In this document: positions 1,355-50,982 of the stretch, piece by piece
How the letters are laid out: every line of letters starts with the position of its first letter
Position numbering within the stretch: position 1 is the stretch's first letter
Assembly (NCBI GenBank): GCA_946624065.1
Contig: CAMORT010000003.1
Location: forward strand, 3,593 to 67,592
DNA length: 64,000 nt
Direction: 5' to 3'
From: an uncultured Bacteroidales bacterium
GTDB taxonomy: Bacteria; Bacteroidota; Bacteroidia; Bacteroidales; WCHB1-69
Notes under the pieces: generated by a model
Database searches by the model: none
What the model was told of the DNA's origin: nothing
Seen by the model: only the letters and a program-made list of their open reading frames with translations
Translations under genes and position numbers: made by a program

Positions 1355-1439
1355 AACCATCCACTCATACTCTATTACTCCTCTTTTCCTCTCTTCCTCT
1401 TTTCCTCTTTTCCCCATTTATCCTTTAAACTTTAAATTT
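1355..1439 (+). repeat. 85-nt G-free pyrimidine-rich tract (CCTCTTTT-type units, contains CCCCATTTA), followed by four 7-nt TTAAACT-type units at 1425-1452
   Basis: Direct reading finds no G between 1355 and 1439. It fills the spacer between the VTC and DUF4956 genes. Confidence 0.9.
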
Positions 1440-1455
1440 GTAACCTTCAACTGAT

Positions 1456-2187
1456 ATGACCCAATCCTCATTCCCCGATTATGATCCTGAAATCATGCGC
1501 GAATTCGGCATGGAAACCGTTGACGGCGCAGGACAATTGTTTGGCATACCGCTTTTTGACGGCCCTTCCCTGTGGCACATGCTGTTCCGCTTTGCCATCA
1601 ATCTGGTCTTCTGCTGGCTGATTATTGGTTTGTTTTATTACAAAAGAAGCAAACGCCGTGATTATTATTTCACCTTCATGATGTTCAGCATCACCATTTT
1701 CTTCCTCATCTTCCTGATGGACAATGTGAAGGTGCAAATCGGCTTCGCCTTGGGATTGTTTGCCATTTTCGGCATGATACGATATCGGACCGAATCCATT
1801 CCTATACGCGAGATGACCTATCTGTTTGTGGTTATTGGATTGTCGGTCATTAATGGCTTAGCCATGACCGTGAGTTATACCGAACTTTGTATAACCAACA
1901 TTCTTGTTTTGGTGGCGGTTTGGATTTTTGAGCGCGCCAAGTGGAAACACAGAGTGGAAACGAAGATTATCCTGTATGAGAAAATAGAGCTGATAAAAGC
2001 CGGCCGTGAGCGGGAGCTGATAGCCGATCTGAAAGAACGCACCGGATTGGATATCCTGAATGTGGAAGTCGGCCATATCAATTTTCTGAAGGATACCGCT
2101 TATGTGAAAGTGAGTTACAAACCGACCCAAGCGGAATACAGTACTATCAACAATCTGACGAAAGTGAGGTCGGACAAGTTTTTTTAG
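1456..2187 (+). CDS. DUF4956-family membrane protein (usual partner of VTC-domain proteins)
   Basis: There are 4-5 predicted TM helices followed by a soluble C-terminal domain. Its position directly after the VTC gene is the conserved pairing. Confidence 0.7.
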   Translation: MTQSSFPDYDPEIMREFGMETVDGAGQLFGIPLFDGPSLWHMLFRFAINLVFCWLIIGLFYYKRSKRRDYYFTFMMFSITIFFLIFLMDNVKVQIGFALGLFAIFGMIRYRTESIPIREMTYLFVVIGLSVINGLAMTVSYTELCITNILVLVAVWIFERAKWKHRVETKIILYEKIELIKAGRERELIADLKERTGLDILNVEVGHINFLKDTAYVKVSYKPTQAEYSTINNLTKVRSDKFF

Positions 2188-2263
2188 ACGTGAGGCTTGA
2201 GATGTGAGATGTGAGAGATGAGACGAGAGACTTGAGACGTGAGAGATGAGACGAGAGATGTGA
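2187..2263 (+). repeat. 11 exact-length heptamer units of the form G[AG]nn[TG]GA (GACGTGA GGCTTGA GATGTGA ...)
   Basis: Parsed by hand: 77 nt equals 11 x 7. The tract starts at the last base of the DUF4956 stop codon and is purine-rich on the + strand. Confidence 0.9.
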
Positions 2264-3119: not shown

Positions 3120-3554
3120 ATGAGTGCAAGCAAGAAATTAGCAGCAGATGCGCGAAAAGAAGCGAAAAAGACGACTTACATGGCCCGATTAGTGGATAAT
3201 CCGACCTCCCCGCGCAAGACCAGAATTATGGCAAACGTGATCCGTGGAAAAAATGTGGATTACGCCATGAATGTATTGAAATACAGCCATAAAGAATCAG
3301 CAGAGAAATTATTGAAACTTTTGAAGTCCGCCGTTGCCAACTGGCAAGTGAAGAATGAAGGTGCCAGACTGGAGAATGCGGATTTGTATGTGAAGACCAT
3401 CATGGTGGATGGCGGCCGTATGCTGAAACGTATCCGCACCGCTCCCCAGGGTCGTGCCAACCGCATCAGAAAACGCTCCAACCACGTTACGCTGGTGATT
3501 GCCGACAGAAATACGGAAAAAGCAAATACAGAAAATATAACAACTGAAGAATAA
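3120..3554 (+). CDS. rplV: 50S ribosomal protein L22 (uL22)
   Basis: The translation (PTSPRKTRIMANVIRGKNVDYA...) and its position before rpsC. Confidence 0.95.
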   Translation: MSASKKLAADARKEAKKTTYMARLVDNPTSPRKTRIMANVIRGKNVDYAMNVLKYSHKESAEKLLKLLKSAVANWQVKNEGARLENADLYVKTIMVDGGRMLKRIRTAPQGRANRIRKRSNHVTLVIADRNTEKANTENITTEE

Positions 3555-3571
3555 ATAATAATTAATTAAGT

Positions 3572-4321
3572 ATGGGTCAGAAAGTAAATCCGGTAGGCTT
3601 ACGCCTTGGTATAGTAAGAGGCTGGGATTCTAATTGGTACGGCGGCAAAAATTTCGCCGGTAAGATCGTCGAAGATGACAAGATTAGAAAGTATCTGAAC
3701 GCTAAGTTCTCCAAAGCCGGTATCTCAAAAATTTACATTGAAAGAACTTTGAAACTGGTCACCGTGACCATCAGCACCGCACGTCCGGGTCTCATTATCG
3801 GCAAGGGCGGTCAGGAAGTTGACAAAGTGAAAGAAGAATTGAAAGTCATCACCAACAAGGAGATTCAAATCAACATCGTTGAGGTGAAACGTCCGGATCT
3901 GGACGCTCAGTTGGTGGCACAGAACATCGCCAAGCAGATTGAGGGTCGTGTGGCATACAAGAAAGCCATCAAGACCGCAGTCGCTTCCACCATGCGCGCG
4001 AATGCGGAAGGTATCAAAGTTACCGCCGCTGGCCGTCTGGGTGGCGCCGAAATGGCTCGTTCCGAGCATTTCAAAGAGGGTCGTATCCCGTTGCACACCT
4101 TGAGAGCGGACATCGACTACGCTCCGGTTGAGGCACACACCACTTACGGTTGCATCGGCATCAAGGTTTGGATCTGCCGCGGCATCGTTTATGGCAAGCG
4201 CGACCTCTTCGCCCAAAATGTGGACAGCAAGGATGCCAAGGGCTCTGCCAAACGTCCGTTCCGCGGACCCCGCAAGGGTGGCAACGGTCCCCGCACCAGC
4301 AACAGAAACATGAATAAGTAA
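3572..4321 (+). CDS. rpsC: 30S ribosomal protein S3 (uS3)
   Basis: [14 protein letters not shown]... KH-domain signature; conserved gene order. Confidence 0.97.
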
Positions 4322-4376
4322 CACGACCGACGCAAAGATGCCGGTTTATCAATAATAATTAAAAACATTAAAAGCA

Positions 4377-4802
4377 ATGTTACAACCTAAAAAAGTAAGA
4401 TACAGAAGGCCGCAGAAAGGCAGAATGAAAGCCATCACCAAACGTGGTGCTGAGATCTCATTCGGTTCTTTCGCATTGAAAACACTGGACGAATTTTGGA
4501 TCAGTGCCCGCCAGATTGAGGCTGCCCGTCAGGCTATCACCCGTGAGATGAAGCGTCAAGGTCAGCTGTGGATTCGCATTTTCCCGGATCGCCCCGTTAC
4601 CGCTAAGGGTTTGGGTGTTCGTATGGGTAAAGGTAAAGGTACTCCTGAGTCTTGGGCCGCACGCGTGAGCCCGGGCCGTATCCTCTTCGAGGCCGACGGC
4701 ATCCCGATGGAAGTCGCCAAGGAAGCTATGAGACTTGGAGCCCAGAAACTGCCCGTTCATACCAAATTCATCGTTAGAAGAGATTATTCACCAGAAATTT
4801 AA
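4377..4802 (+). CDS. rplP: 50S ribosomal protein L16 (uL16)
   Basis: [19 protein letters not shown]... signature; conserved gene order. Confidence 0.97.
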
Positions 4803-4813
4803 TACGAGGCGAT

Positions 4814-5014
4814 ATGAAACAGAAAGTTATTAACGAGCTTACGACTCCGGAAGTGAAAGAGAGACTGGATGTGGAAAAAGACAACCTGGTCAAGATGAGA
4901 CTCAACCACGCCATCTCCCCGTTGGAAAACCCCCAACTGATTAAAGAGCAACGCAGAACAATCGCAAGACTGTACACCGAGTTGCGCAAACGCGAATTAA
5001 ACGATAACAAATAA
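4814..5014 (+). CDS. rpmC: 50S ribosomal protein L29 (uL29)
   Basis: 66 aa, in the expected position between rplP and rpsQ. Confidence 0.93.
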
Positions 5015-5028
5015 TCCACCTGACAAGT

Positions 5029-5283
5029 ATGGAAAGAAATAACAGAAAAGTGAGAGAAGGCATCGTGGTCAGCGACAAGATGGAAAAATCCATCGTCGTG
5101 CTGGTTGAACGCAAGATGAAACACCCCATCTACGGAAAGTTCCTGAAACGTTCCACCAAGTTCATGGCTCATGACGAGAAGAACGATTGCCATATCGGTG
5201 ACAGAGTTAGAATTATGGAAACCAGACCTTTGAGCAAAAACAAGTGCTGGCGATTAGTAGAAATTATTGAAAGAGCTAAATAG
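5029..5283 (+). CDS. rpsQ: 30S ribosomal protein S17 (uS17)
   Basis: [19 protein letters not shown]... signature; conserved gene order. Confidence 0.95.
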
Positions 5284-5285
5284 TT

Positions 5286-5654
5286 ATGATACAACAAGAA
5301 TCAAGATTAGCAGTAGCAGACAACAGCGGTGCTAAGGAAGTCCTCTGCATCCGCGTTCTGGGCGGTACCAAAAAACGCTATGCAGGCGTGGGCGACAAGA
5401 TTGTGGTCGCCATCAAGAGTGCCATCCCCTCCGGCCAAGTGAAAGCCGGTACAGTCTCCAAGGCAGTGGTTGTGCGCACCAAGAGACACGTGCGCCGCAA
5501 CGACGGTTCCTACATCAAGTTTGATGACAATGCCGTTGTGCTCCTCACCGCCGCCGACGAACTCCGCGGTACCCGTATCTTCGGACCTGTCGCACGTGAG
5601 TTGCGTGAGAAACAGTTTATGAAGATCGTGTCTTTGGCTCCGGAAGTATTGTAG
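5286..5654 (+). CDS. rplN: 50S ribosomal protein L14 (uL14)
   Basis: [19 protein letters not shown]... signature. Confidence 0.97.
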
Positions 5655-5719
5655 AAATTAATTCATAAAGATACAATTGACAAAGACCAATTGGCGAACA
5701 TTAAAATTTTAAAAGAAAA

Positions 5720-6034
5720 ATGAAACTTAAAATCAAGAAAGGCGACATCGTAAAAGTCATCACCGGCGAGTATAAGGGTACTCAAGGCAAGGTCCTTGAA
5801 GTCCTGCCGAGTGCAAACAAGGCTTTGGTGGAGGGTTGCAACATGGTGTCCAAGAGCACCAAGCCCAACGCCAAGACCCCGAACGGTGGCATTATCAAGA
5901 AAGAGGCCCCTATCCACATTTCAAACCTTATGGTTGTTGACGCTAAAGGAAACGCTACCCGCGTTGGTAGAAGATTGAATGACAAAGGCAAATTAGTAAG
6001 ATATTCTAAAAAATCTGGAGAGGAGATCAAATAA
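5720..6034 (+). CDS. rplX: 50S ribosomal protein L24 (uL24)
   Basis: [25 protein letters not shown] motif. Confidence 0.95.
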
Positions 6035-6588
6035 TGTACACACCGAGATTCAAAGAGAAATACCAGAATGAGGTGCTTCCCGCCCTCAAGGAACAGTTCG
6101 GATTCAAATCCGTTATGCGCGTTCCCCGTATCACTAAGATTTGCCTCAACCAAGGTTTGGGCAAGTTCGGCATCGCTGACAAGAAACTCATCGACGCCGG
6201 TGTTCAGGAGATGACCATGATCGCTGGCCAAAAGGCTGTTGCGACCAAGTCCAAAAAAGATATCTCCAACTTCAAATTGAGAAAAGGTATGCCGATCGGC
6301 GTCCGCGTGACCCTGCACGGCGACCGCATGTATGAATTCTTAGACAGATTGGTTTCTGTTTCCATTCCTCGTATCCGCGACTTCAGAGGCATCAGCGACA
6401 AGGGTTTCGACGGCAGAGGAAACTACACACTGGGTATTCCCGAGCAGATTATCTTCCCGGAAATCGATATCGACAAGGTGGCCAAAATCAACGGTATGGA
6501 CATCACGTTCGTGACCACGGCCCAAAACGACAAGGAATGCCTTGCCTTATTGAAAGAATTTGGCTTACCATTTAAAAATCAGAAATAA
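6034..6588 (+). CDS. rplE: 50S ribosomal protein L5 (uL5)
   Basis: The translation and gene order. The ATG overlaps the rplX stop. Confidence 0.96.
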
Positions 6589-6590
6589 TT

Positions 6591-6890
6591 ATGGCTAAAG
6601 AATCCTTAAAAGCAAGAGAGATAAAAAGAGCAAAATTAGTTGCCAAATATAGTGCGAAACGCGCGGAACTTAAGAAAATCATGAAGGGTGACGACTATGA
6701 CGCTAAAAGAGCCGCTGACATCGCCCTCCAGAAATTACCCCCCAACTCCAATCCTATCCGTATGCACAACCGCTGCAAACTGACCGGTCGTCCGAAAGGC
6801 TATATCCGTCAGTTCGGCCTCTCCCGTATCAATTTCAGAGAAATGGCCATGGCAGGCTTGTTGCCGGGTGTAAAGAAAGCTAGTTGGTAA
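6591..6890 (+). CDS. rpsN: 30S ribosomal protein S14 (uS14)
   Basis: The C-terminal [24 protein letters not shown] motif. Confidence 0.95.
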
Positions 6891-6913
6891 AATTAAATTA
6901 GAAGTAAAAGATT

Positions 6914-7312
6914 ATGAATACCGATCCAATATCAGATTATTTGACTCGTTTGAGAAACGCTATCCGCGCGAATCACAAGGTGGTGGAAATCCCCGCCTCC
7001 AACGAGAAAAGAGCTATCACCAAGATACTCTTTGACAAAGGTTATATTCTCAATTACAAGTTCGTGGATGATGTGCACCCCAAGATGATCAAGATCGCCT
7101 TGAAGTACCATCCCACAACGAAACAATCAGCCATTACGACGCTGCAACGCGCCAGCCGCCCTGGTCTTCGTAAATACGCTGGTGTGAACGAACTTCCTTC
7201 CGTGCTTAACGGACTTGGCATTGCCATCGTCTCCACCTCCCGCGGTATGATGACCGACAAAGAGGCCAAGGCCCAGAATGTCGGCGGTGAAGTTATTTGT
7301 TACATTAGCTAA
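6914..7312 (+). CDS. rpsH: 30S ribosomal protein S8 (uS8)
   Basis: DPISDYLTRLRNA signature. Confidence 0.96.
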   Translation: MNTDPISDYLTRLRNAIRANHKVVEIPASNEKRAITKILFDKGYILNYKFVDDVHPKMIKIALKYHPTTKQSAITTLQRASRPGLRKYAGVNELPSVLNGLGIAIVSTSRGMMTDKEAKAQNVGGEVICYIS

Positions 7313-7326
7313 TAGGAGGAATTGAT

Positions 7327-7887
7327 ATGTCAAGAATAGGTAAATTACAAATTGCGATTCCCAGCGGAGTCGAAATCAAAAGAGATGAGAAGTCCAATGT
7401 CGTGACTGTAAAAGGTCCCAAGGGCGAACTCAAACAATATGTCGATCCTCGTATTGAAATGAACATCGAAGACGGTCATCTTCATCTGACTCGTCCTACC
7501 GATAACAAACGCGACAAATCCATGCACGGCCTTTATAGAGCCCTCATCAACAATATGGTGACCGGCGTTTCTGAAGGATTCCAGATTAAGATGGAAGTGA
7601 TTGGTGTAGGTTACAAAGCCGAAGCCAAAGGTGCCCACCAATTGGACATGGGTCTGGGTTACTCCCACAATATTCTGTTCGACTTCCCGGAGGAAATTTC
7701 TGTGGAGACCATCAATGAGAAAGGTAAGAGCCCTATCATCATCCTGAAGAGCATTGACAAACAACTCCTCGGTTTGGTGGCCAAGAAAATCCGTTCCTAT
7801 CGTAAACCTGAACCGTATAAAGGCAAAGGTATCCGCTTCGAAGGCGAATTTGTTAGAAAGAAAGCTGGTAAATCAGCAGAAAAATAA
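7327..7887 (+). CDS. rplF: 50S ribosomal protein L6 (uL6)
   Basis: MSRIGKLQIAIPSGVEI... signature. Confidence 0.96.
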   Translation: MSRIGKLQIAIPSGVEIKRDEKSNVVTVKGPKGELKQYVDPRIEMNIEDGHLHLTRPTDNKRDKSMHGLYRALINNMVTGVSEGFQIKMEVIGVGYKAEAKGAHQLDMGLGYSHNILFDFPEEISVETINEKGKSPIIILKSIDKQLLGLVAKKIRSYRKPEPYKGKGIRFEGEFVRKKAGKSAEK

Positions 7888-7905
7888 TCGTGTAAATTTG
7901 TTATT

Positions 7906-8265
7906 ATGGCATACAATAGAAAAGAATATAGAAGAAAAAGGATTAAAAACCGCGTGCGTAAAATCGTTAGCGGTACTCCTAATCGCCCCAGATTGTCCGT
8001 GTTCAGAAGTAACCGCGACATCTATGTTCAGCTGATTGACGATGTGGCAGGGGTAACCTTGGTTTCCGCATCCTCCAAACTGCCGAACATTGCAGAACAA
8101 AAAATCACCAAATGCGAGAAGTCCGCTTTAGTAGGCAAGGAAATTGCCCAACGTGCTATCGCTGCCGGTATCAACGAGGTTGTTTTCGACCGTAACGGTT
8201 ATTTGTATCATGGTAGAATCAAATCTTTGGCTGAAGCAGCCAGAGAAGGTGGTCTTAAATTTTAA
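7906..8265 (+). CDS. rplR: 50S ribosomal protein L18 (uL18)
   Basis: [20 protein letters not shown] signature. Confidence 0.95.
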
Positions 8266-8276
8266 AATCAAGACGT

Positions 8277-8795
8277 ATGGCTAACTTAAATATTAAGAAA
8301 GTAAAAGCAACTGACATCGAACTCAAAGAAAGAATGGTGGCAGTTAATCGTGTGACCAAAGTGACCAAGGGTGGTCGAATCTTCAGTTTCGCCGCTATCA
8401 TGGTAGTCGGTAATGAGAATGGTATCGTGGGCTACGGCCTTGGTAAGGCTCGCGAAGTTTCCACAGCCATCTCTAAAGGTACGGAAGATGCGAAAAAGAA
8501 CCTGATTCAAGTGCCTGTGCTGAAAGGTACGATCCCTCACGCTCAGGAAGGCAAGTACAGTGGAGCCACTGTCTTTATGAAACCTGCCGCCCCCGGTACT
8601 GGTGTTATCGCCGGTGGTGCTATGCGTGCCGTGTTGGAAAGCGTTGGCGTTAAGAACGTGTTGGCAAAGTCCAAAGGTTCCTCTAACCCACACAGCGTTG
8701 TGAAGGCTACTTTTGATGCCCTTTCCAAAATGCGCGATGCCTATACGGTGGCACAAGTTCGTGGTGTGGACCTTGACAAGGTATTCAGAGGCTAA
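8277..8795 (+). CDS. rpsE: 30S ribosomal protein S5 (uS5)
   Basis: [20 protein letters not shown] signature. It is the last gene of the block in this window. Confidence 0.96.
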
Positions 8796-8821
8796 CATAT
8801 TATATACTATAACTATTTATA

Positions 8822-8849
8822 ATGACCGCAATCGCGGTCATTTTTTTTT
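8822..8849 (+). terminator. intrinsic terminator after rpsE
   Basis: Stem ATGACCGC / GCGGTCAT (8822-8829 / 8834-8841), loop AATC, then a run of 9 T. Confidence 0.8.
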
Positions 8850-9241
8850 GTAATTATGGGTCTTGCCCCAGCTATGGTGTAGCTTCCGCTCAACGCTAAT
8901 GCGACTTGCGGAATGGTGTGATGCCTATCTTTCTTCAAGTATTCTTTCGACACGAACACCATTCCGCCTTGAACATAGTAAACGGCGTTATTCCGATCAA
9001 CAGAACGTCATGTTAGGTCAACTTCCATATTGGTGTTTTTTTATAATTTTTTATGAACATAAGCTTGTGAAAAGGAAAATAATTTTTTATTTTTGTTGCT
9101 GTCTTTCGTGCATGTTGCCACCAGCAGTTGGTCGTATCTTATAACGCTGCTAATTTGTATGGTCTCAAGAAATGGATAAAGGATAAATAGAACTAATAAT
9201 CAGATATATTTTCAATATAGTATAAACTAAATCTTATTATT

Positions 9242-15200: not shown

Positions 15201-16321
15201 CGGACATGAGCAACTGGAGCAACGCATGTGTGGGAACAACCGAATGCGATGTAACGAATGTGCCTTATACAGAGGATTTTGAGTCTTATGCTGGAACCAC
15301 ATATTCTGATAATAATGGTCCTGTTCCATTGTGCTGGACGAATTATGGTACCAATACAACATACGGTCATCCGCATGTGTCGGGTAGTGGTTCTTACCAT
15401 TATACTCATAGCGGTAACAATTCTCTTGTCTTCACCGCCGGAACAACAGGGAATGGTACGGACGCGTATGCCATGTTGCCCACTTTCACACAGCCTCTCA
15501 ATACATTGCAGATAGGTTTCTATTATGCCATGGAAAGCACGAGTTATGGTACGCTATCTGTTGGATATGTGACCAATTTGGCTGATCCAGCAAACACTTT
15601 CGTTATGTTGGAAACAGTTACCTCTATTGATGGTGATGAAGTTCCAATGGATTCCATTACGGTGGACTTCAGTTCGTATCCGTCTGTCCCTGCCAATGGT
15701 AATATCTGTTTCCATTGGAATGTTACTGGGAGTTGGTATAACTGTTGTATTGATGATATTGCCGTTAATGTTGCAGGTTCTGGCCCTATAGTTCAACCTT
15801 GTGAGGTACCTCAGGGCTTGACCGTTGCCAATGTGGATAATACTACGGCCACGCTTACATGGACTCCGAATGCCAATGTGCAATACTGGACTATCGATTA
15901 TAAGAAGACCAGTGCTAACACATGGACTACAGTGAATAATATCACCTCACCGACCTACACTTTGACGAACCTCAATCAGATCACCCAATACGATGTGCGT
16001 CTGGCTGCGGTTTGTGGTGACAATAACACCAGTGACTACACACCTGTCGTTCAATTCACCACCACGAATGTTGGTGTTAACGATTATGAGATGAGCACTA
16101 CACTCTATCCGAACCCGACTACAGGTGAAATCAGAATTCAAAATACAGAATTCAGAATCCAAAGTGTTGAGGTTTACGATGTGTATGGCAAACTGATCAA
16201 GTCTGTCAAGGTGGATGACTTCAGTGTTGTCATCGATCTGTCCGCCAACGCATCAGGTGTTTACTTCACGCGCATCATGACAGATAATGGCATGGTGACC
16301 AAACGCGTAGTGAAGGAGTAG
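9242..16321 (+). CDS. 2359-aa T9SS-secreted modular surface protein (FN3-like domains alternating with choice-of-anchor-J-like modules; type A C-terminal sorting domain)
   Basis: Signal peptide MKKVLFLLMLVSFGLSGTLQAQ. Six modules start C-x4-LP[FY]xE[ND]F[DE]S and contain LPxCW. FN3-like segments (C.P..L.V......A.L.W.P) lie between them. The C-terminus (LYPNPTTGEIRIQ...ASGVYFTRIMTDNGMVTKRVVKE) matches the T9SS type A CTD pattern. Confidence 0.85.
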   Translation: MKKVLFLLMLVSFGLSGTLQAQQTITIGTGTSTGYVTPFNSLWGYSFVEQLYYANEISVAGYITEVSFYYDHGGSQTNNIELFMKNVNRTTFSSDADYESVTQSDLVYSGTFVIPNDSGWVSITLDVPFYYDGISNLMIAMHEFTSGYSSRYFAYTSTTNAVLSYHSDSANPDPYNLGSYSGNKYTSANRANVRLEITPAQLTCPATGSPVVDTVDAHSATLLWSPNGSETSWDVYLTTSATDIPDSNTIPTDYVYDTSYSASNLNSSTKYYFYVRANCGAGDVSWWRTVSFNTLCEALTTLPLFENFDSWPGASSTSVSVNNLPHCWHHLSGAYSSYAGYPIIYSSSTYAASGSNAMRFYTSTTTSYSYGDEYAILPRVDVTYYPINTLQITMDVRKNSTSYTDFTLFVGVMSDPTDPTTFVPVDTIVKSSTSYEEFTVMFNNYTGLGEYVALCAPKVTSSNVSYNTGYVDNLVLEPIPSCLKPTGVTLSNITATSVDVDWTPGDYEPAWEIVVVPAGTPVTSGLAEYATTHPYTVGNLDDNTRYDLYVRADCGGGDYSSWTQPQSFTTDPLCTPPSNLTISQVAGTSALVSWSPALVGATNYTVEYSEAGMDMWTPEVVNGTSYMIPFLNPQTSYDVRVYSNCDLSSADTLTRTFSTGCLSGGDMNIGDGTNTSTSIPSYSFYKHGYSQQIFTASELGGANTFNSISFYMVNLAQQRNYKIYLMHTTATTSSDWLPTTNAQLVYSGPQTLVADSWNTFNFSTPFVYNGVDNLAVIVIDSNSSYSSGNSWRVHNAPAGTGATKYTYNDGTAYSITSAPTTTNGGALAVRNNVKFGGDCDSLSTCVRPNLYIASKTDESITIDWAPGYMESSWDLEYSTDDTTWVSLGSLSSAPYTLDNLNANTVYYIRIRSNCGSDYSDWVKIHERTECGYVNIPLMEGFESAPGSGSGNMITCWSTNSNYTSTHYPYTSSSQHHNGTYSVYFYAGSSYYSYLITPRFDDNVMMNNLEVSFWAYKTSSTYYIQVGVMSNPEDPSTFVQIGQFSPSATSVWELFEVTTASYTGDGHYIAFRLPSDTTNYMYIDDINIDAIPTCQHVTNIHVDGTTLTGVSADILWTPGGTESEWEYVVAPANTVTNPENELSNTVYTAVAPLTGLVANTSYDIFVRANCAPGDNSRWEMYTFRTACDAITALPFVDNFDSYGIGSGVWIPCWKKFRTYTLSTTLPYVSGNNWGGTAGADGSVGYLYFYTATSGTYTMAVTPSFDPSIPINTLRAKFKYKRHNSNDEVIVGVISDITDSTTFVPVDTITVSTTDTWTDTHVDFSSYTGTGTYIAFMCMYHNNNTYSMIDNLSINTLPNCLEPNGFMVSSLDETSVSLTWNAGNENEWELYVVPTGSTLENVTPITLYDTSYTVTGLNSNTSYDAYLRAVCAGSGYSDYSITYFTTTCAAMDSLPFVENFDSHTGSTSGTTNNLPSCWNNISGSYSSYAGYPIIYNSSSSAASGSNSMRFYTGTTTSYAYGDEYAILPPIDVMMYPINTLQLTMDVRKGSTSYTDFTLIVGVMSNPSDANTFVPVDTIVRPDATYDEYTVYFSNYTGTGNFIALCAPKNTQNNVAYNTGYVDNIVVDVIPSCPRPNDLTVTGITSNTIDLSWTDYSSGAASSWTVEYGTPGFTPGTYAGTILQANTNSITLPNLTANTSYEIYVMADCGMGDQSTWSNPLVVTTSCDLLTTLPFTENFDSYTAYTSTSASTSNLPNCWNNLSGSYSSYAGYPIIYYSSSTNYASSAPNAMRFYSGTTTSYNYGDEYAILPPVDQTLYPINTLQLTIDVRKGSTSYADFTLFVGVMTNPQDASTFVAVDTIVQPNATYSEYTVYFTNYTGSGNFIALKAPRHTPTNVSYNTGYVDNIYLEEIPSCPRPNGLHVDAVTNSSITLSWNEIGSANSWEIEYGAPGFTLGSGTTVQATSNPMTVTGLQSSSNYEFYVRSVCSATDMSNWSNACVGTTECDVTNVPYTEDFESYAGTTYSDNNGPVPLCWTNYGTNTTYGHPHVSGSGSYHYTHSGNNSLVFTAGTTGNGTDAYAMLPTFTQPLNTLQIGFYYAMESTSYGTLSVGYVTNLADPANTFVMLETVTSIDGDEVPMDSITVDFSSYPSVPANGNICFHWNVTGSWYNCCIDDIAVNVAGSGPIVQPCEVPQGLTVANVDNTTATLTWTPNANVQYWTIDYKKTSANTWTTVNNITSPTYTLTNLNQITQYDVRLAAVCGDNNTSDYTPVVQFTTTNVGVNDYEMSTTLYPNPTTGEIRIQNTEFRIQSVEVYDVYGKLIKSVKVDDFSVVIDLSANASGVYFTRIMTDNGMVTKRVVKE
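10126..10690 (+). repeat. intragenic module copy A (about 188 aa) of the giant T9SS gene
   Basis: By-eye alignment of LPHCWHHLSGAYSSYAGYPIIY...GDEYAILP...YPINTLQITMDVRKNSTSYTDFTLFVGVMSDP to copies B and C gives roughly 75-85 percent amino-acid identity. Confidence 0.8.
13576..14140 (+). repeat. intragenic module copy B
   Basis: LPSCWNNISGSYSSYAGYPIIY...GDEYAILP...YPINTLQLTMDVRKGSTSYTDFTLIVGVMSNP. Confidence 0.8.
14411..14987 (+). repeat. intragenic module copy C
   Basis: LPNCWNNLSGSYSSYAGYPIIY...GDEYAILP...YPINTLQLTIDVRKGSTSYADFTLFVGVMTNP. Confidence 0.8.
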
Positions 16322-16370
16322 GTCATGGACTGTTAGTTTTAGGTATTCTTTAAACCTTAAACTTGAAACT

Positions 16371-16405
16371 AAAGAGGTTCCTCAATCGAGGAACCTCTTT
16401 TTTTT
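16371..16405. terminator. hairpin terminator between the convergent giant T9SS gene and the 773-aa gene
   Basis: 13-bp perfect stem AAAGAGGTTCCTC / GAGGAACCTCTTT with loop AATC, followed by a T run on the + strand. Confidence 0.8.
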
Positions 16406-16407
16406 GT

Positions 16408-18729
16408 CTAGAACCCTCTTGAGCTTCGCGCCGCGCTTGATACTACGGTGCTACGGGAACGGACGCTTCCGGAACTGGGAACCGTTCGGGATTGTCCGGA
16501 AGCGGGTCTGCTGGTTGTGGCGCTCTTGCTTCCGGAAGTTGTGCTTGGTCTTGGCGCGGTTGCGGGTTTTGTGGCTCCGGGCGTAGTTGTAGGTTTTCCG
16601 CTCACTGGCTGCGAGGTGGTAGGTTTGGCTGTCGGTGCGGGATATGTGCGAGGTGTGCCTCCACCGGAACCGGCTGACTTGTAGTTCGTGGTGCTGCCCA
16701 CTCGGCTGATGCGTGAGGAGATATTGTGCCCGCCTGTGGTTACCATGTCGTTGTAGGTTATGATGACCGACGGGGTTTTCAGATAACGCCCGCCGCTCTT
16801 GCTCAGGTTGCCGACATAGTAGTCCTTGATTTTGGCTAAGTCCACCCCGATGAGCTTGAGGTTGTTCTTTCCAATGGTGCGCAGCAAGTTGTTCACCTTG
16901 TGTGCCTGCAACATTCGGTTGTAACTCTCCTGACTGTTGATGGTCGTGCCGCGAGGGTAGGAGAGATAACGGGCCAATTTGCCGAAATTCTCTTCCGATA
17001 GTCCATTCAGCATGGTTCTCACCCCCTGTAACTCCCCGATGATCATTTGTTTTTGCCTCCTGTTTACATCTTGGTAGATGTCTCGCTGATTCTCTTCCGT
17101 ATAAGAAAAGTTGTACCGGTCTTCGTTCTCCCGCATCTGTTTGTTCACCTGATTGCGCCCGTAGGCGTCGAAATGGATGCGCGACAGCGTGTCTGCTAAT
17201 TGCTGAAGTTGACTGTCATCCATGTTTTTGAGAATGTTGAGCAGGTCTTTGCAGGGCTTGGCCAGCAAATAGGGTTTGTTGGACGGGAAGGCGTTGTGCA
17301 GCAACTTGCCTTTATAGTGTATGCCATTGTCCATAAATAATTGGTATAGAGCAGTATATTGCACCACACGGGCGATGTCGGTGTTGCCGCAGTTGGCGAA
17401 ATAATTGCCCGCTTGCCGCTCGTAACTGCTGCCGATGCTCTGGTGGCTCTCCTGAGAGTTGAAGTACGACACTGGCAGCGCCCCGGTTCGGTTCAGCGTG
17501 TAGATGGTGTGCTCCGGCAGATCAATGGCGTACATGGTATTGGCGGTGTTCCAGTTGTAAACCAGCTGGTTGATTCCCAGTTTCTGAAACAGCGGACGGT
17601 CGAAAGGAAAATAGCCGGGAGAAGGGTAGTGGTAGGATGCCTCTTGGATGGTGCCGCTTTCCGACCAGTCCTTTAACAACACATCCGTGATGGTGAGCAG
17701 ATGCCCAAGCTCGGTGTTCTCCAGTTCGCGGCTGAGGTAGGTAGGGCACCAGTCGCGGCCGTCGGGCATCTTGCCTGCCAGACAGTCGTTGATGTCCAAA
17801 CTCTGCGAGAGTTCCTTGGCGCTGATGCTGGCAATAAGCAGTACGGTTTCCACACGCAACGGAGGCAGCACCTCCAGCGGTTGCTCGCGCTCGCGCCCAA
17901 TGATGACAAGTGTGGACGAATCGCGCAAGGCACCCAAAATCAAGTCCGCATCCAGCGCGAACCGCCGGATGTCACCCGCCTGGTTGATCAGGTCACTGTC
18001 GCGACGGATACACCAGGCCACTAATCCCGGTGCTTTGCTGAAAAACACCCCTTTGCGTTTTTGCTCAAACATTCTGCTGATAGTCAATGTTTTGGAGGTG
18101 TCTTTCTCATCGATAAATTCTTCCGCCGCTTGGAAAAACCAATCGTCAAATTCGGCCAAAGAGATTTGGTAATCCAGATTTTCACGAGTGAAATAGGAAC
18201 GCTTAAGCTCTTTTTGCAGATTAATGGCGTTGGGTTTGTAGTCGGAAAGATAGAGATGCTTGGAGATTTTTGTTACCAGATTGTTGAGGTTTTCCGTGGT
18301 TGCATTCCCCAAAAGCATCATGATGTCCGTCATCCGGCCGTCGTAGCCGATATGGACCTGCTTGCGCACGGTTTCGTGCGTGAACTTTTCGCAGATCTTT
18401 TCCAAACTGTCTGTTTCAAAGAATGGGGCAGGTTCTGAAATGAGGATAATGCGGCTGCTGTCGGCGAAAGTGGCTGTGCCGATGGTCTGGTAGTGCATCC
18501 GGAAATGCTTGCGGAATTGCTCGTGTACGGAGTCGGCTTTCGCGAACGCTATCGTCTCCTCCATGTTCACATGCTGGTCAGGGATGAACTCCCGCTTCAT
18601 CAGCGTGGCTGTCTGTTTCTTGATCCCTTCGACCACTTTCGTGCGATTGCCGAAAGTGAACAGGCAAACCACCAGTATCAGCATAATACCGGCAGCAACG
18701 AGGACTCTGTTTCTCACATTGTTGGTCAT
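16408..18729 (-). CDS. 773-aa membrane-anchored protein of unknown function with an S/T/P-rich basic disordered C-terminal tail
   Basis: Single N-terminal TM helix (RVLVAAGIMLILVVCLFTF). About 640 aa have no motif I recognise. The last ~95 aa are low complexity (TPRTYPAPTAKPTTSQPVSGKPTTTPGATKPATAPRPSTTSGSKSATTSRPASG...). Confidence 0.7.
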   Translation of the reverse strand: MTNNVRNRVLVAAGIMLILVVCLFTFGNRTKVVEGIKKQTATLMKREFIPDQHVNMEETIAFAKADSVHEQFRKHFRMHYQTIGTATFADSSRIILISEPAPFFETDSLEKICEKFTHETVRKQVHIGYDGRMTDIMMLLGNATTENLNNLVTKISKHLYLSDYKPNAINLQKELKRSYFTRENLDYQISLAEFDDWFFQAAEEFIDEKDTSKTLTISRMFEQKRKGVFFSKAPGLVAWCIRRDSDLINQAGDIRRFALDADLILGALRDSSTLVIIGREREQPLEVLPPLRVETVLLIASISAKELSQSLDINDCLAGKMPDGRDWCPTYLSRELENTELGHLLTITDVLLKDWSESGTIQEASYHYPSPGYFPFDRPLFQKLGINQLVYNWNTANTMYAIDLPEHTIYTLNRTGALPVSYFNSQESHQSIGSSYERQAGNYFANCGNTDIARVVQYTALYQLFMDNGIHYKGKLLHNAFPSNKPYLLAKPCKDLLNILKNMDDSQLQQLADTLSRIHFDAYGRNQVNKQMRENEDRYNFSYTEENQRDIYQDVNRRQKQMIIGELQGVRTMLNGLSEENFGKLARYLSYPRGTTINSQESYNRMLQAHKVNNLLRTIGKNNLKLIGVDLAKIKDYYVGNLSKSGGRYLKTPSVIITYNDMVTTGGHNISSRISRVGSTTNYKSAGSGGGTPRTYPAPTAKPTTSQPVSGKPTTTPGATKPATAPRPSTTSGSKSATTSRPASGQSRTVPSSGSVRSRSTVVSSAARSSRGF

Positions 18730-18772: not shown

Positions 18773-18885
18773 TCCCCAGTCTTAAATCTTAAATCTCCAG
18801 CCTTAAATCCCCCAGTCTTAAATCTCCAGTCTTAAGTCTCAAGTCTCAAGTCTCCAGTCTCCAGTCTCCAGTCTCCAGTCTCAAC
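18773..18885 (+). repeat. 16 tandem degenerate heptamers (TCTTAAA / TCTCCAG / TCTCAAG)
   Basis: Parsed by hand. One unit is 8 nt. The tract ends 10 nt before a -7 promoter box, in the divergent spacer between the 773-aa gene and yqeY. Confidence 0.9.
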
Positions 18886-18894
18886 TCTTTTTTG

Positions 18895-18926: not shown

Positions 18927-19376
18927 ATGAATTTGGAACAAAGAATCAATGAAGACATCAAGGCTGCCATGCTAGCCAAGGAAAAAGATAAACTCAATGC
19001 TCTGAGAGCCATCAAGTCCGCCATTTTATTGGCGAAAACCCAGAAAGGCGCTGCGGATGAGATTAGCGAAGAGGGTGAAATCAAGATTTTGAAACAGTTG
19101 GTGAAGCAGCGTCAGGATTCCGCCGAAATGTATAAGCAGCAGAACCGCGATGATTTATATCAAGAGGAGAAATTCCAATTGGACATCATTTCCGCCTATC
19201 TGCCGAAGATGCTATCCGAGGAAGAGGTGGAAGCTTCTCTGAAACAGATCATTGCCGATAATGGATTCGCTGGCATGAAAGATATGGGCAAGGTGATGGG
19301 GCAGGCCACGAAGTTGTTTGCCGGTAAGGCCGACAACAAGATGGTGTCCGACATAGTGAAACGCTTGCTGTCTTAA
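18927..19376 (+). CDS. GatB/YqeY domain-containing protein
   Basis: MNLEQRINEDIKAAMLAKEKDKLNALRAIKSAILLAK is the typical YqeY N-terminus; 149 aa. Confidence 0.85.
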   Translation: MNLEQRINEDIKAAMLAKEKDKLNALRAIKSAILLAKTQKGAADEISEEGEIKILKQLVKQRQDSAEMYKQQNRDDLYQEEKFQLDIISAYLPKMLSEEEVEASLKQIIADNGFAGMKDMGKVMGQATKLFAGKADNKMVSDIVKRLLS

Positions 19377-26711: not shown

Positions 26712-26719
26712 TATCTTTG
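26712..26719 (+). promoter_or_regulatory. -7 promoter box TAtcTTTG for the YhcG-like gene
   Basis: TAnnTTTG, 22 nt upstream of the ATG at 26741. It shows that the track's TTG start at 26717 is an artefact. Confidence 0.5.
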
Positions 26720-26740
26720 CATTCTAAAAACAACAAAACT

Positions 26741-27907
26741 ATGACTAACAAAACGACATTTATTTCCCGTGACATCATGACTGCCGATGAGGGCTATGTG
26801 CAATGGATGGCTGACATCAAGCAGCGTTTCCGTCAAAGCCAATTAAAAGCGGCAGTTCGAGTGAACACCACCATGCTTGAATTTTACTGGAGTGTAGGCC
26901 GTGATTTGGTGGCACTGCGTGCTGAAGAGCGTTGGGGATCTGGCGTGGTTAAACAATTTGCCCTTGACATGCGGCAGGCATTTCCTAATGAAACAGGATT
27001 CTCATACTCCAATGTAAAATACATGAAACAATGGTATTTATATTATTATGAGAGAGTTATAAAATGTCAGCAAGCGGCTAACGAAAAAAGCCACCAGCTT
27101 GGTGGCCAATTGGAAGTCGTTGAAAAAAGCCAGCAAATTGCTGGCCAAATTGATATTCTGAAGAAAGGCCAGCAGCCTGCTGGCCAATTAGAGATGCCCG
27201 AGATTTTTGGAAGAATACCGTGGTTCCATCATGTCCAGATCATTTCCAAATGTAAGACTCTTGATGATGCTTTATTCTATATCGATCGAGTGGTGGCAGA
27301 AGGCTGGAGCCGCAGCAAACTTGAGAACCAAATTGCCGCTAATCTTTACGGCAGTCAAGGTGCAGCGGTTAATAATTTTGCAAGCACATTGCCTTCCACA
27401 CAGAGCCAATTGGCGAAAGAACTATTGAAAGACCCTTATCATTTCGACTTCCTGTCCATGGAAGAGGAGTATGTGGAAAAAGACTTGGAAGACGCCCTTG
27501 TCTCGAAGGTCACGCAGTTCCTGTTGGAGTTGGGGAAAGGTTTTTCATATGTGGGTCGTCAGATGGAGTTGCAAATGCCCGGAGGGCAGACCTTCTTTCC
27601 CGACTTGTTGTTCTATCACATACCGCAGCACCGCTATGTTGTCGTTGAGTTGAAGGTGGTGAAGTTCATCCCCGAGTTTGCCGGCAAACTGAATTTCTAT
27701 GTCTCTGCCGTTGACGAGTTGTTGCGTGCTGAGGGCGACAACCCCACCGTAGGACTGATTATCTGCAAATCGAGCGACAAGACCGTTGTGGAATGGTCGT
27801 TGAAAGACATCAGCAAGCCTCTTGGCGTATCCACCTACCAACTTGAGCAGGTGGTCGCTCGCACGGTGAGAGAGTTGGAACAGAGGAAAGGAGAGGGACG
27901 GAAATAG
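26741..27907 (+). CDS. YhcG/DUF1016-family PD-(D/E)xK nuclease domain protein
   Basis: DUF1016 N-domain pattern (NTTMLEFYWSVGRDLV...WGSGVVKQFALDMRQAFPNETGFSYSNVKYMKQWY). C-terminal nuclease core (FLLELGKGFSYVGRQ...FFPDLLFYHIPQHRYVVVELKVVKF...GKLNFY). Confidence 0.8.
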   Translation: MTNKTTFISRDIMTADEGYVQWMADIKQRFRQSQLKAAVRVNTTMLEFYWSVGRDLVALRAEERWGSGVVKQFALDMRQAFPNETGFSYSNVKYMKQWYLYYYERVIKCQQAANEKSHQLGGQLEVVEKSQQIAGQIDILKKGQQPAGQLEMPEIFGRIPWFHHVQIISKCKTLDDALFYIDRVVAEGWSRSKLENQIAANLYGSQGAAVNNFASTLPSTQSQLAKELLKDPYHFDFLSMEEEYVEKDLEDALVSKVTQFLLELGKGFSYVGRQMELQMPGGQTFFPDLLFYHIPQHRYVVVELKVVKFIPEFAGKLNFYVSAVDELLRAEGDNPTVGLIICKSSDKTVVEWSLKDISKPLGVSTYQLEQVVARTVRELEQRKGEGRK

Positions 27908-31040: not shown

Positions 31041-31297
31041 TATCGAAAGGTAGGTTTGAAAAAATCTTTTCTGTTAAAAGTTGTTAAAGTTTTCCAAAAA
31101 GTTATTTATTATTCTATTATATTTAAAAACAAATCATTATCTATTTTATTATTAACAGAATAGAAATGCTTAAAGTTGGTCATAATTTGGTCATGTTTTA
31201 GAAGTTTTGTTGGTCGTAGTAGTCATTTTTAAGAATAATATAAACTGTCAAAATTCACAATGTCAATTAAGAAGAAACAACAAGAACTTCTCTCATG

Positions 31298-31318
31298 AGT
31301 CCTGTTCCGGGCACTGAA
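31298..31318 (+). repeat. attR-like copy of the 21-bp direct repeat (AGTCCTGTTCCGGGCACTGAA)
   Basis: Identical to 26566-26586. No tRNA body precedes it. Confidence 0.85.
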
Positions 31319-31320
31319 AA

Positions 31321-31359
31321 AAAGGTAGGGATGAATGATCATTCGCCCCTACCTTTTTT
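31321..31359 (+). terminator. hairpin plus T run immediately after the attR copy (probably the original tRNA-Leu terminator)
   Basis: AGGTAGGG / CCCTACCT stem with an inner GAATGA/TCATTC pairing, an A run before it and TTTTTT after it. Confidence 0.65.
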
Positions 31360-31360
31360 G

Positions 31361-31368
31361 TATCTTTG
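31361..31368 (+). promoter_or_regulatory. -7 promoter box TAtcTTTG for rsmI
   Basis: TAnnTTTG, 20 nt upstream of the ATG at 31388. Confidence 0.55.
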
Positions 31369-31387
31369 CGCTTCAAATGCGATTATA

Positions 31388-32065
31388 ATGAAACTCTTTA
31401 TCGTCCCAACCCCTATCGGCAATCTGGAGGATATAACTCTTCGGGCGCTCAATGTGTTGCGCTCCGTGGATCTGATTCTCTGCGAGGATACCCGCACCAC
31501 CCGCAAGCTGCTCCAACACTACGAGATTGACAAACGCTGTATGGCGTACCATATCTTCAATGAGCATGAGCAGATGAACCGCTTCTTGGGTGAGATAAAA
31601 GCCCATGAGCAAGTGGCGCTGGTGAGCGACGCCGGCACTCCCGGCATCTCCGACCCCGGATTCCTACTCGTGCGCGAGTGCGTGGCCAACGGCATCGAGG
31701 TGGAATGTCTGCCCGGCGCCACCGCCTTTGTGCCCGCCTTGGTGCAGTCGGGACTCCCCTGCAGCAGTTTCTACTTCTATGGCTTCCTGCCTCACAAGAA
31801 AGGCAAGGAAACGCTGCTGAAACGCGTGGCCCAGATGGAGGAGACCGTCGTCTTCTACGAATCCCCCCACCGCCTGCTCAAATCACTGGAAAAAATGGTT
31901 GAGATAATGGGACCGGACCGCAAGATTTCCATATCCAAAGAAATCTCCAAAATTTACGCGCACACGTTCCGCGGTACCCTCGCTGAGGCAGTCGAACATT
32001 TCGCCCAAGACGAAGTGAAAGGGGAATTTGTAATGGTAATTGCACCGAAGGACGCACGAGGGTAG
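31388..32065 (+). CDS. rsmI: 16S rRNA (cytidine1402-2'-O)-methyltransferase
   Basis: MKLFIVPTPIGNLEDITLRALNVLRSVDLILCEDTR is the RsmI N-terminus. The track ORF start at 31295 runs through the att repeat, terminator and promoter, so it is rejected. Confidence 0.88.
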   Translation: MKLFIVPTPIGNLEDITLRALNVLRSVDLILCEDTRTTRKLLQHYEIDKRCMAYHIFNEHEQMNRFLGEIKAHEQVALVSDAGTPGISDPGFLLVRECVANGIEVECLPGATAFVPALVQSGLPCSSFYFYGFLPHKKGKETLLKRVAQMEETVVFYESPHRLLKSLEKMVEIMGPDRKISISKEISKIYAHTFRGTLAEAVEHFAQDEVKGEFVMVIAPKDARG

Positions 32066-32084: not shown

Positions 32085-32162
32085 GTCCCACGTCCCACAT
32101 TCCACGTCTAACGTCCACGTCCCACGTCTCACGTCTAACGTCCAACATCCCACGTCAGTCAC
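32085..32162 (+). repeat. 11 tandem degenerate heptamers (GTCCCAC / GTCTAAC / GTCTCAC)
   Basis: Parsed by hand. One unit is 6 nt. It lies between the rsmI stop and the eno promoter. Confidence 0.9.
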
Positions 32163-32218: not shown

Positions 32219-33520
<1,302 letters not shown>

Positions 33521-37346: not shown

Positions 37347-38036
37347 TTATTGCCCCACGGTATTGTTGATTCTTCGTTTCGCCCTTTTCCAAATGAAAAT
37401 GAAGAAGATGAAGAATCCCAGATTCAGTAATGAGGCGGTGATGGTGTCAGTGCCTTGAATCAATTCGGCATACATGAGCACGAAGTCGTAAATACCGTGC
37501 ATGATGACTGGAATAAGGAAGGCGAGGAAAAGATAGAAGTGTTTTTTTGAAGGCCTGAATTTGGCGAGGGCAAAGAAATATCCCATGAAGATGGCGAAAA
37601 AGAAATGGGCGGGCACGGCGAACAACGCGCGGCTCACCGCCACACCCAGACCACCCTGCATCACATACAGGATATTCTCCAATCCGGCGAACCCCAGACC
37701 CACGCATGCCGCATATTCCAATCCGTCGTAGTATTCGTCAAAATACTGGCTTTTCCAGATGAAAAGGTACAGGAACACCAGTTTGCAGAACTCCTCGGGC
37801 ATGGCGGCCATGCAAAACGCCTGAAACAGCGCCTGGTGCAGTGGCAATGAAGTGTCGCCTAACCTTTCGACATTCAGAACGGTAAGGAGCAACACATCCA
37901 AACCAGCAGCCAGCACACCACCCAGCAGGGCTTTAAGCAGCATGGGCAGCGGCTCCTTTTGGAACCTGTCCTTGGAATAAATGTAAATCAACAGGAAGAT
38001 GACCGGCGCGAATGATGCTATAAGAATGATGGACAT
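37347..38036 (-). CDS. PrsW-family intramembrane protease
   Basis: Polytopic membrane protein with EE..K (AAMPEEFCKL) and HxxxD (HGIYDF) motifs. Confidence 0.7.
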   Translation of the reverse strand: MSIILIASFAPVIFLLIYIYSKDRFQKEPLPMLLKALLGGVLAAGLDVLLLTVLNVERLGDTSLPLHQALFQAFCMAAMPEEFCKLVFLYLFIWKSQYFDEYYDGLEYAACVGLGFAGLENILYVMQGGLGVAVSRALFAVPAHFFFAIFMGYFFALAKFRPSKKHFYLFLAFLIPVIMHGIYDFVLMYAELIQGTDTITASLLNLGFFIFFIFIWKRAKRRINNTVGQ

Positions 38037-38048
38037 GATGGAAAGGGC

Positions 38049-38130
38049 GAAAGGGGTGAAGTTGGTGAAATGGGTGAAATTGGTAAAAGGTAAATGGGGT
38101 AAAAGGGATTAGGTTATGGGGTTTTATGAA
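38049..38130 (-). repeat. 82-nt tract that is G-free on the transcribed (minus) strand, with about 9-nt units (GGTGAARTK on plus) and CCCCATTTA; flanked by four 7-nt TGAACTT-type units at 38127-38154
   Basis: Direct reading finds no C on the plus strand between 38049 and 38130. It fills the fumC-prsW spacer. Confidence 0.9.
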
Positions 38131-38155
38131 CTTTTAACTTTGAAACCTGAAACTT

Positions 38156-44290: not shown

Positions 44291-44311
44291 CATTGTATGT
44301 TTGATATTATT

Positions 44312-44353: not shown

Positions 44354-44368
44354 CGCTTTGAATATGAT

Positions 44369-45022: not shown

Positions 45023-45041
45023 CGTAGAACACAATGAACAA

Positions 45042-45125
45042 ATCCCCAATCCCCAATCTTAAATCTCAAATCCCAAGTATCAAGTCTCAAGTCTCAAATC
45101 CCAAATCTCAAATCTCAAGTCTAAA
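45042..45125 (+). repeat. 12 tandem degenerate heptamers (ATCCCCA / ATCTCAA / GTCTCAA)
   Basis: Parsed by hand: exactly 84 nt, ending 20 nt before the ATG at 45145. Confidence 0.9.
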
Positions 45126-45144
45126 TTATAATCTTTAATCAATC

Positions 45145-50894: not shown

Positions 50895-50982
50895 AGACGT
50901 AAGACTTGAGACGTGAGATGTAAGACTTGAGACGTGAGATGTAAGACTTGATATGTAAGTAAGACTTGAGACTTGAGGGGTA
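50895..50982 (-). repeat. about 12 heptamers (plus strand AGACTTG AGACGTG AGATGTA) with a 21-nt higher-order repeat
   Basis: Parsed by hand. AGACTTGAGACGTGAGATGTA occurs twice exactly, plus partial copies. It lies between the DUF4270 stop and the nitroreductase ATG. Confidence 0.9.

Follow-up and report, generated by a model that had tools for sequence, protein, structure and literature searches.

Polymorphic heptanucleotide tandem arrays in the intergenic spacers of an uncultured rumen Bacteroidales bacterium

Intergenic arrays of heptamers occur in cyanobacteria as STRR repeats, for example those with the unit CCCCAGT. Two papers that cite Mrazek et al. 2007 describe heptamers as the over-represented, predominant class of long bacterial SSRs, located between genes, whose arrays vary in length and sequence among close relatives and for which polymerase slippage has been proposed; they also state that detailed studies are lacking and that very little is known of the reason for the period of 7 or of any role (PMC4692102, PMC4679880). 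The units GGGAATC in Xanthomonas and GGGGA(T/C)T in Nostoc form intergenic heptamer repeats, and Xanthomonas also carries inverted array pairs, as do the related rumen MAGs described below (PMC4692102). Direct repeats of TAACTGA are found in marine Beggiatoaceae, in cyanobacteria and in a few Bacteroidetes, where they occur in long arrays mixed with other heptamers (PMC4679880). In Haemophilus influenzae, TGAAAGA repeats lie upstream of hmw1A and hmw2A (Dawid et al. 1999, via PMC2651432), and depending on the strain the repeats that precede these hmw genes are hepta-, octa- or nonanucleotides (PMC2651432).

Here we report on tandem arrays in a 64-kb stretch of DNA from an uncultured rumen Bacteroidales bacterium; the whole stretch is called the window throughout. 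An earlier note, made from the sequence of the window, had described five long intergenic tracts with a period of 7 and had proposed several explanations for them.

Tandem arrays in the window and their neighbouring genes

Approximately 93% of the window is coding and 6.5% is non-coding. Tandem Repeats Finder, applied to the window, reported period-7 arrays at 2186-2263 (11.1 copies), 18780-18888, 32085-32156 (10.4 copies), 45039-45126 (12.7 copies) and 50895-50977, each composed of 8-13 head-to-tail copies, and the five arrays span 77-116 nt each. Several of them also showed higher-order periods of 14, 21 or 28 nt with identity up to 96%, indicating that multi-unit blocks have been duplicated. 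A self-match scan covering periods 2-21 across the window detected four regions at each of the periods 7, 14 and 21 and a single one at period 8 and at period 9, with zero regions at the other periods in this range, so that period 7 is conspicuous. The five tracts of the earlier note are confirmed in place, and 200 locally shuffled windows yielded no arrays (0/200). With head-to-tail copies beyond chance, the arrays belong to the long SSR or VNTR heptanucleotide class. The strict heptamer phasing claimed for them was mostly found, the exceptions being one 8-nt unit in array 2 and one 6-nt unit in array 3.

All five long heptamer arrays are intergenic, falling within the non-coding 6.5% of the window, and for these five, units of a length not divisible by 3 are thus restricted to non-coding DNA. 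The broader claim that every tract is intergenic did not extend to a 4.6-copy GAATTCA run at 16127-16158, which lies inside a gene. Together with one period-8 and one period-9 array, the five heptamer arrays account for approximately 13% of the intergenic bases of the window. The 10 kb to the left of the window is nearly all coding and contained no period-7 or other short-unit array. The arrays and the clearest short run are as follows.

2186..2263, minus strand: heptamer array 1, about 11 units, CACGTCT/CAAGTCT/CATCTCT on the minus strand
18773..18888, plus strand: heptamer array 2, about 16 units, TCTTAAA/TCTCCAG/TCTCAAG
32085..32162, plus strand: heptamer array 3, about 11 units, GTCCCAC/GTCTAAC/ATCCCAC
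45039..45126, plus strand: heptamer array 4, about 12 units, AATCCCC/AATCTCA/AGTCTCA
50895..50982, minus strand: heptamer array 5, about 12 units, CAAGTCT/CACGTCT/TACATCT on the minus (sense) strand
1379..1413, plus strand: period-8 array, TCCTCTTT, 4.4 copies, G-poor, in the VTC-DUF4956 spacer
38049..38107, minus strand: period-9 array, GGTGAAATT on the plus strand, C-rich on the sense minus strand
16348..16370, plus strand: short CTTTAAA/TAAACTT run, 3.3 copies

Array 1 begins within the stop codon of a DUF4956 gene (1456-2187) and is followed by a DUF2490 gene (2295-2969); the sense (plus) strand of both neighbours is G-rich in the array. Array 2 is flanked by the divergent promoters of a gene of 773 aa (16408-18729, minus strand) and yqeY (18927-19376), with -7 boxes at 18747 on the minus strand and 18895 on the plus strand, so that no known transcript crosses it. 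A TP_methylase gene (31295-32065) ends in a stop codon 20 nt before the start of array 3, which is followed by the promoter of the enolase gene (32231-33520), with its -7 box at 32201. The boxes at 18895 and 32201 both read TAtcTTTG and stand directly downstream of arrays 2 and 3, in agreement with the earlier description of tracts just upstream of -7 boxes. Array 4 fills the spacer between a PCMT gene (44297-45022) and an NTP_transferase gene (45145-45858), and array 5 lies between a DUF4270/BamH-like gene (50989-52302, minus strand) and a nitroreductase gene (50238-50879, minus strand). The neighbouring genes are thus ordinary ones, including the housekeeping genes yqeY, enolase, pcm and nitroreductase.

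The Bacteroidetes -7 motif TAnnTTTG was found 16-48 nt upstream of many start codons in the window. A search for the same motif detected no -7 box in the spacers of arrays 1, 4 and 5, which appear to be intra-operonic; for array 4, this absence makes it probable that the PCMT and NTP_transferase genes are co-transcribed. The short TAAACTT/TGAACTT runs mentioned in the earlier note were also present. The period-8 array is followed by a TTTAAAC-type heptamer run (1425-1452) that adjoins a start codon, the period-9 array is located in the fumarase-PrsW spacer next to a TGAACTT-type run (38127-38154), and the run at 16348..16370 lies between the stop codon of a gene of 2359 aa and a bidirectional hairpin terminator.

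Other features of the window were recorded alongside the arrays. At gathering thresholds Rfam placed no family over any tract, its only hits being a cobalamin riboswitch and a tRNA. The riboswitch (RF00174, 102 bits, 61264-61453, minus strand) would precede a minus-strand ORF of 531 aa (59737-61332), and since it overlaps the 5′ end of a plus-strand ORF call (61194-62801), the gene calls there are unreliable. ARAGORN identified a tRNA-Leu(gag) at 53243-53327 that Rfam did not report at the gathering score and that overlaps the start of a crude gene call on the minus strand (52306-53268). A ribosomal-protein operon at 3120-8795 encodes L22, S3, L16, L29, S17, L14, L24, L5, S14, S8, L6, L18 and S5; VTC, DUF4956 and DUF2490 precede it where S10-L3-L4-L23-L2-S19 would normally stand, which suggests a split cluster. 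Within the ORF at 26717-27907, a 39-nt tandem repeat (27083-27189, 2.8 copies, 77% matches) is probably a 13-residue protein repeat.

Variation of the arrays between strains

The window matches scaffold_211 of the sheep-rumen metagenome ERZ28612947, and near-identical sequence is present in several MAGs named 'Bacteroidales bacterium'. Strain alleles were gathered by exact protein sequence look-up, which gave 8-10 alleles per locus at three loci. The array lengths between conserved anchors across strains were as follows.

Array 1: 58, 72, 79, 86 nt
Array 2: 44, 73, 101, 129, 143, 178 nt
Array 3: 47, 60, 61, 74, 102, 103 nt

At each of the three loci the allele lengths are congruent modulo 7 except for one 1-nt indel class, and copy number changes in whole units between fixed flanks. 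This unit-number polymorphism in 7-nt steps, which the earlier note had proposed to look for among strains, strongly supports its alternative of slippage-prone spacers. Array 2 ranges from 6 to 25 units across strains in short-read metagenome assemblies, where long arrays can be miscounted; its 5′ leading units are common to the strains, and the interior and 3′ part are variable. Unit variants appear in a different order between strains, and two alleles (L009 and L005) differ by a 35-nt duplication of five units. The period-8 array differs by 8 or 16 nt between strains, and both the period-8 and the period-9 arrays of the window behave like the heptamer arrays. For array 5 no other strain allele was found; here, and when further alleles of array 4 were sought, matching by exact protein mostly led back to the contig of the window itself. 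The counts for arrays 1 and 3 are reliable because these arrays are shorter than the read or k-mer length. In one assembly (L010, GCA_002392325.1), a run of N marking a scaffold gap falls exactly inside array 2, which indicates that the repeats break short-read assemblies and that the copy numbers of the longest alleles need caution.

Unrelated repeats replace the whole spacer at three loci. Upstream of yqeY, one allele consists of CTTTCAC/TGTACCC-type units (L003) and another of TCCTCTT-type units (L006), and a different CT-rich repeat lies upstream of enolase in a more diverged lineage (L145/L147). At the array 4 locus, the L131/L211 allele has a G-rich period-9 array followed by (TGAACTT)n, with flanking proteins identical to those of the window. 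In relatives with 69-78% protein identity (L214-L217) the pcm-NTP_transferase spacer is still built of repeats, arranged as a G-rich 9-mer array, variable heptamers (AATTCTC, AGTCTTC), (T[GA]AACTT)n and then ATG; arrays were absent from this spacer in relatives more distant than that. The retention of a repeat-built spacer with a partly conserved layout in diverged relatives suggests that the spacers are perhaps not purely neutral. At the yqeY and enolase loci, every alternative allele is likewise pyrimidine-rich on the same strand, which could reflect selection, with a small number of alleles and p ~0.1.

These are therefore true tandem arrays that gain and lose whole units and blocks of 2-5 units between close strains while their flanks stay fixed, and their unit sequence is arbitrary, differing among loci and among alleles of one locus. 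We consider it likely that the tracts are hypervariable heptanucleotide SSRs ('long SSRs', VNTR-like) that occupy whole intergenic spacers. Such arrays would arise and change size through slipped-strand mispairing, in replication or in repair, or through unequal recombination, and would persist only between genes, where indels that are not a multiple of 3 are presumably harmless. As one strand is nearly free of G, neither strand pairs with itself, and the result is a set of structure-free spacers of variable length. Effects on expression would be by-products that differ by locus, for example Rho loading on arrays whose C-rich strand is, by chance, transcribed but not translated, or a changed distance upstream of a promoter.

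Wholesale replacement of alleles, together with the recurrence of one type of composite spacer at different loci, would also be accounted for by a MITE-like mobile or horizontally exchanged cassette that carries, or consists of, the arrays. The L131 spacer and window positions 38030-38160 do share a layout, namely a G-rich 9-mer array with TTATGAACTTT-type units after it, and the two stand in opposite orientation relative to the genes. Their similarity is nevertheless of low complexity (66% mean column identity), the replacement takes in the entire spacer between the stop and start codons and leaves no conserved ends, and around the five arrays we found only trivial poly-T/poly-A arms and no terminal inverted repeats with the defined ends of a MITE or REP element. 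Given also the lack of any Rfam match, a cassette is very improbable.

By analogy with H. influenzae hmw, copy number could instead be selected to tune the transcription or translation of the adjacent gene. Promoters adjoin arrays 2 and 3, copy number is strongly polymorphic, and the switch between hepta-, octa- and nonanucleotide repeats among H. influenzae strains parallels the allele replacement seen here (PMC2651432). The neighbours, however, are housekeeping genes (yqeY, enolase, pcm, nitroreductase) and not surface or contingency genes, those with an array at the promoter being yqeY and enolase; the arrays lie upstream of the -7 box and not between promoter elements, and no activator site was evident. 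Helical phasing of array 2 was rejected as well, because its lengths modulo 21 are scattered (2, 10, 17, 3, 17, 10), and this failure to keep a helical phase argues against a spacing-sensitive regulatory design. A selected rheostat of this kind would thus be a rather unlikely basis for the arrays, and any promoter-spacing effect, like any Rho loading, is probably a by-product of hypervariable SSRs.

Orientation, unit sequence and possible roles

We analysed the orientation of the arrays relative to transcription. As the earlier note had stated, four of the five long arrays have their C-rich strand in the sense direction of the downstream gene, and three of the five in that of both neighbours. 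In the co-directional spacers of the window, with the period-8 and period-9 arrays counted, the C-rich strand is sense in 5/6, a count that is not significant by itself. In the loci of Bacteroidota relatives, which were found through one unit class and annotated with crude longest-ORF gene calls, all period-7 arrays gave 17 sense versus 18 antisense for the C-rich strand. By the same gene calling, co-directional spacers across phyla gave 17 sense versus 25 antisense among the matches listed. The arrays therefore have no consistent orientation with respect to transcription, and none with respect to replication as described below. Inverted pairs of one unit within a single spacer (TTTAGAC ... 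AGTCTTA) were observed in related rumen Bacteroidales MAGs, where they could form long hairpins:

L011, 6205-6368: inverted array pair
L015, 2015-2114: inverted array pair
L015, 7342-7500: inverted array pair
L094, 6692-6856: inverted array pair

These data bear on the explanation favoured in the earlier note, in which the tracts are selected rut sites: Rho would load on C-rich RNA after the stop codon and terminate transcription or cause polarity, and the tracts would replace intrinsic terminators. The composition is suitable, with a C:G ratio of approximately 3-7 on one strand of each tract, which provides C-rich, G-poor sequence of at least ~70-80 nt, about the length of a rut site. The C-rich RNAs of the arrays are essentially unstructured (minimum free energy 0 to -9.6 kcal/mol), and the description of them as C-rich, G-poor, unstructured RNA of about rut size holds for four of the five tracts. 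Arrays start 0-20 nt after stop codons, and arrays 3, 4 and 5 resemble rut sites in having ~80 nt of such RNA after a stop codon. Intrinsic terminators were not found in the array-bearing spacers, although hairpin and T-run terminators are used elsewhere in the window (for example in spacers 8796-8862, 16322-16407 and 56625-56734), and the 5/6 sense count in the window points the same way. Rut sites, by contrast, are non-tandem and need transcription in the C-rich orientation. Array 2 lies upstream of both divergent promoters and array 1 is G-rich in the sense strand, so that two of the five tracts fail this need, as do the L131/L211 allele of array 4, G-rich in the sense strand between identical flanking proteins, and about half of the arrays in relatives; a transcribed, untranslated C-rich sense strand is left only for arrays 3, 4 and 5. 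Arrays of one unit stand in both orientations within one spacer (L011, L015), a single locus has from 6 to 25 units, and at arrays 1, 4 and 5, which lie within apparent operons, termination would shut off the gene that follows. The earlier note had itself named random orientation genome-wide as evidence that would speak against a terminator role, and the counts measured in relatives come close to it. Selected rut sites are thus not supported as the reason for the tracts and appear unlikely on the sequence evidence, while incidental Rho loading at arrays 3, 4 and 5 would be possible.

Replication strand did not explain the orientations either. Cumulative GC skew climbs across the window except for two dips, with mostly positive skew on the plus strand, and on this strand four arrays are C-rich and three G-rich when the period-8 and period-9 arrays are included; a replication-strand bias was rejected on these counts. 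The dnaA gene is located at 46040-47494, 0.9 kb downstream of array 4. No lasting turn of cumulative GC skew was seen at dnaA, so that oriC probably does not lie next to this gene, unless the skew is too weak to reveal it.

To assess the specificity of the unit, one genome per species was scanned for 3.5 copies of GTCT[CT][AC]A, and arrays were detected in at least 120 species of many phyla, including Acidobacteriota, Chloroflexota, Planctomycetota, Bacteroidota, cyanobacteria, Proteobacteria and others among the matches listed. In viral contigs this unit gave 10 hits, versus 21 and 18 for two permuted control units matched to it in composition and degeneracy. A special unit sequence or common descent of the arrays was therefore rejected, since viral contigs contain the permuted units no less often and since other arrays in the same relatives are built from unrelated units. 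The same comparison weighs on the proposal, raised in the earlier note, that the arrays are sites for a sequence-specific DNA- or RNA-binding protein, one per 7-nt unit. Regular spacing would suit such a protein, as would the position of some arrays near start codons, similar to the TAACTGA repeats of Beggiatoaceae (PMC4679880). The units, however, differ among tracts (GTCCCAC, AATCTCA, AGTCTCC, CACGTCT) and among alleles of one locus, both orientations are present, and the permuted units are no rarer in viral contigs. Binding arrays are accordingly disfavoured, to the point of being extremely improbable.

The density of GTCTC/GAGAC emphasised in the earlier note was confirmed, with 17 of the 69 sites of the window in arrays, and is merely a consequence of the unit sequence. 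Outside the arrays, GTCTC/GAGAC is the rarest of 30 composition-matched pentamers, with 52 occurrences (range 52-231); this scarcity, in a sample as small as 64 kb, may be due to restriction-site avoidance or codon bias.

A second, AT-rich heptamer family, (T[GA]AAC[TC]T)n, was observed at 388-451 of L214, at 1161-1195 of L215, in the L211/L131 spacer and at window positions 1425-1452 and 38127-38154. In relatives at 73-100% protein identity, (TGAACTT)n adjoins the start codon of NTP_transferase in the context '...(TGAACTT)n GTAAT ATG', with approximately 4-10 units, and in L216 and L217 (69-70% identity) TAAACT-type units end before 'ATCATC ATG'. A search for (T[GAT]AA[AC][CT]T)n arrays of at least 3 units produced few further examples in the fetched loci. 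In (TGAACTT)n, TTTG recurs every 7 nt, and the family yields near or perfect TAnnTTTG -7 boxes, namely TAAATTTG at 1433 and TAACTTTG at 38135. Four periods, or 28 nt, approximate the estimated distance from the -33 to the -7 element in Bacteroidetes. Arrays of this kind could work as promoter or leader modules that do not depend on register and stand immediately before start codons. That the spacers or the start-adjacent (TGAACTT)n arrays are maintained by selection as tunable expression elements is a conjecture to which we give little weight.

A more general version would hold that the spacers of this clade are assembled from hypermutable arrays and selected as structure-free, G- or C-depleted segments that tune expression. 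We regard this as quite doubtful. If it were true, Rho loading, promoter context or the efficiency of translation initiation would depend on how many units an array has and on which way it points, and the coupling of adjacent housekeeping genes would be a rapidly evolving quantitative trait.

Comparison with described repeat systems

Reading the tracts as hypervariable SSRs has practical consequences. In annotation, they should be labelled as variable tandem repeats and not as terminators or binding sites, and it should be considered that they break or distort short-read assemblies. With many strain alleles in public rumen metagenomes, this lineage can be used to measure repeat turnover, to test array orientation against Rho-dependent polarity in Bacteroidota, and for strain typing.

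A close match is to the long SSRs with units of 5-11 nt, mostly heptanucleotides, of Mrazek, Guo and Shah 2007, as summarised in PMC4679880 and PMC4692102. These share with the present arrays tandem 7-nt units, intergenic location and lengths far beyond chance; both are scattered sporadically across phylogeny, and polymerase slippage is the origin proposed for them. The lineage here, an uncultured rumen Bacteroidales bacterium, is not among the genomes discussed in PMC4679880 and PMC4692102. The present arrays are also dense, with five long ones in 64 kb and approximately 13% of intergenic DNA occupied, and they mix several unit variants instead of repeating one perfect unit.

Like the Xanthomonas and Nostoc repeats, the arrays differ extensively in length and sequence among close relatives, and they are found in either orientation and at times as inverted pairs (PMC4692102). 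The first units of array 4, AATCCCC, are the reverse complement of the Nostoc unit GGGGATT, which is best read as convergence. Unlike those repeats, the arrays belong to a different phylum, and most of their units lack runs of four G or C, so that G-quadruplex formation is not a general property of the arrays here.

The TAACTGA repeats are likewise intergenic heptamer arrays, some of them directly upstream of start codons (PMC4679880). In Beggiatoaceae one dominant TAACTGA unit has a consistent orientation and start-codon distance (PMC4679880), neither of which applies to the TCTCAAG-class arrays: in place of one unit in fixed orientation a few nucleotides upstream of starts, units, orientations and positions all vary. 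With the hmw repeats the arrays share 7-nt repeats upstream of genes, strain-polymorphic copy number and different repeat classes at one locus (PMC2651432). The hmw repeats occupy the promoter region of adhesin genes, which are contingency genes, and have a measured effect on expression (PMC2651432), whereas the neighbours here are housekeeping genes. Taken together, these comparisons indicate that the rumen Bacteroidales arrays are an unusually dense case of the heptamer repeat class already described in Xanthomonas, Nostoc and Beggiatoaceae.
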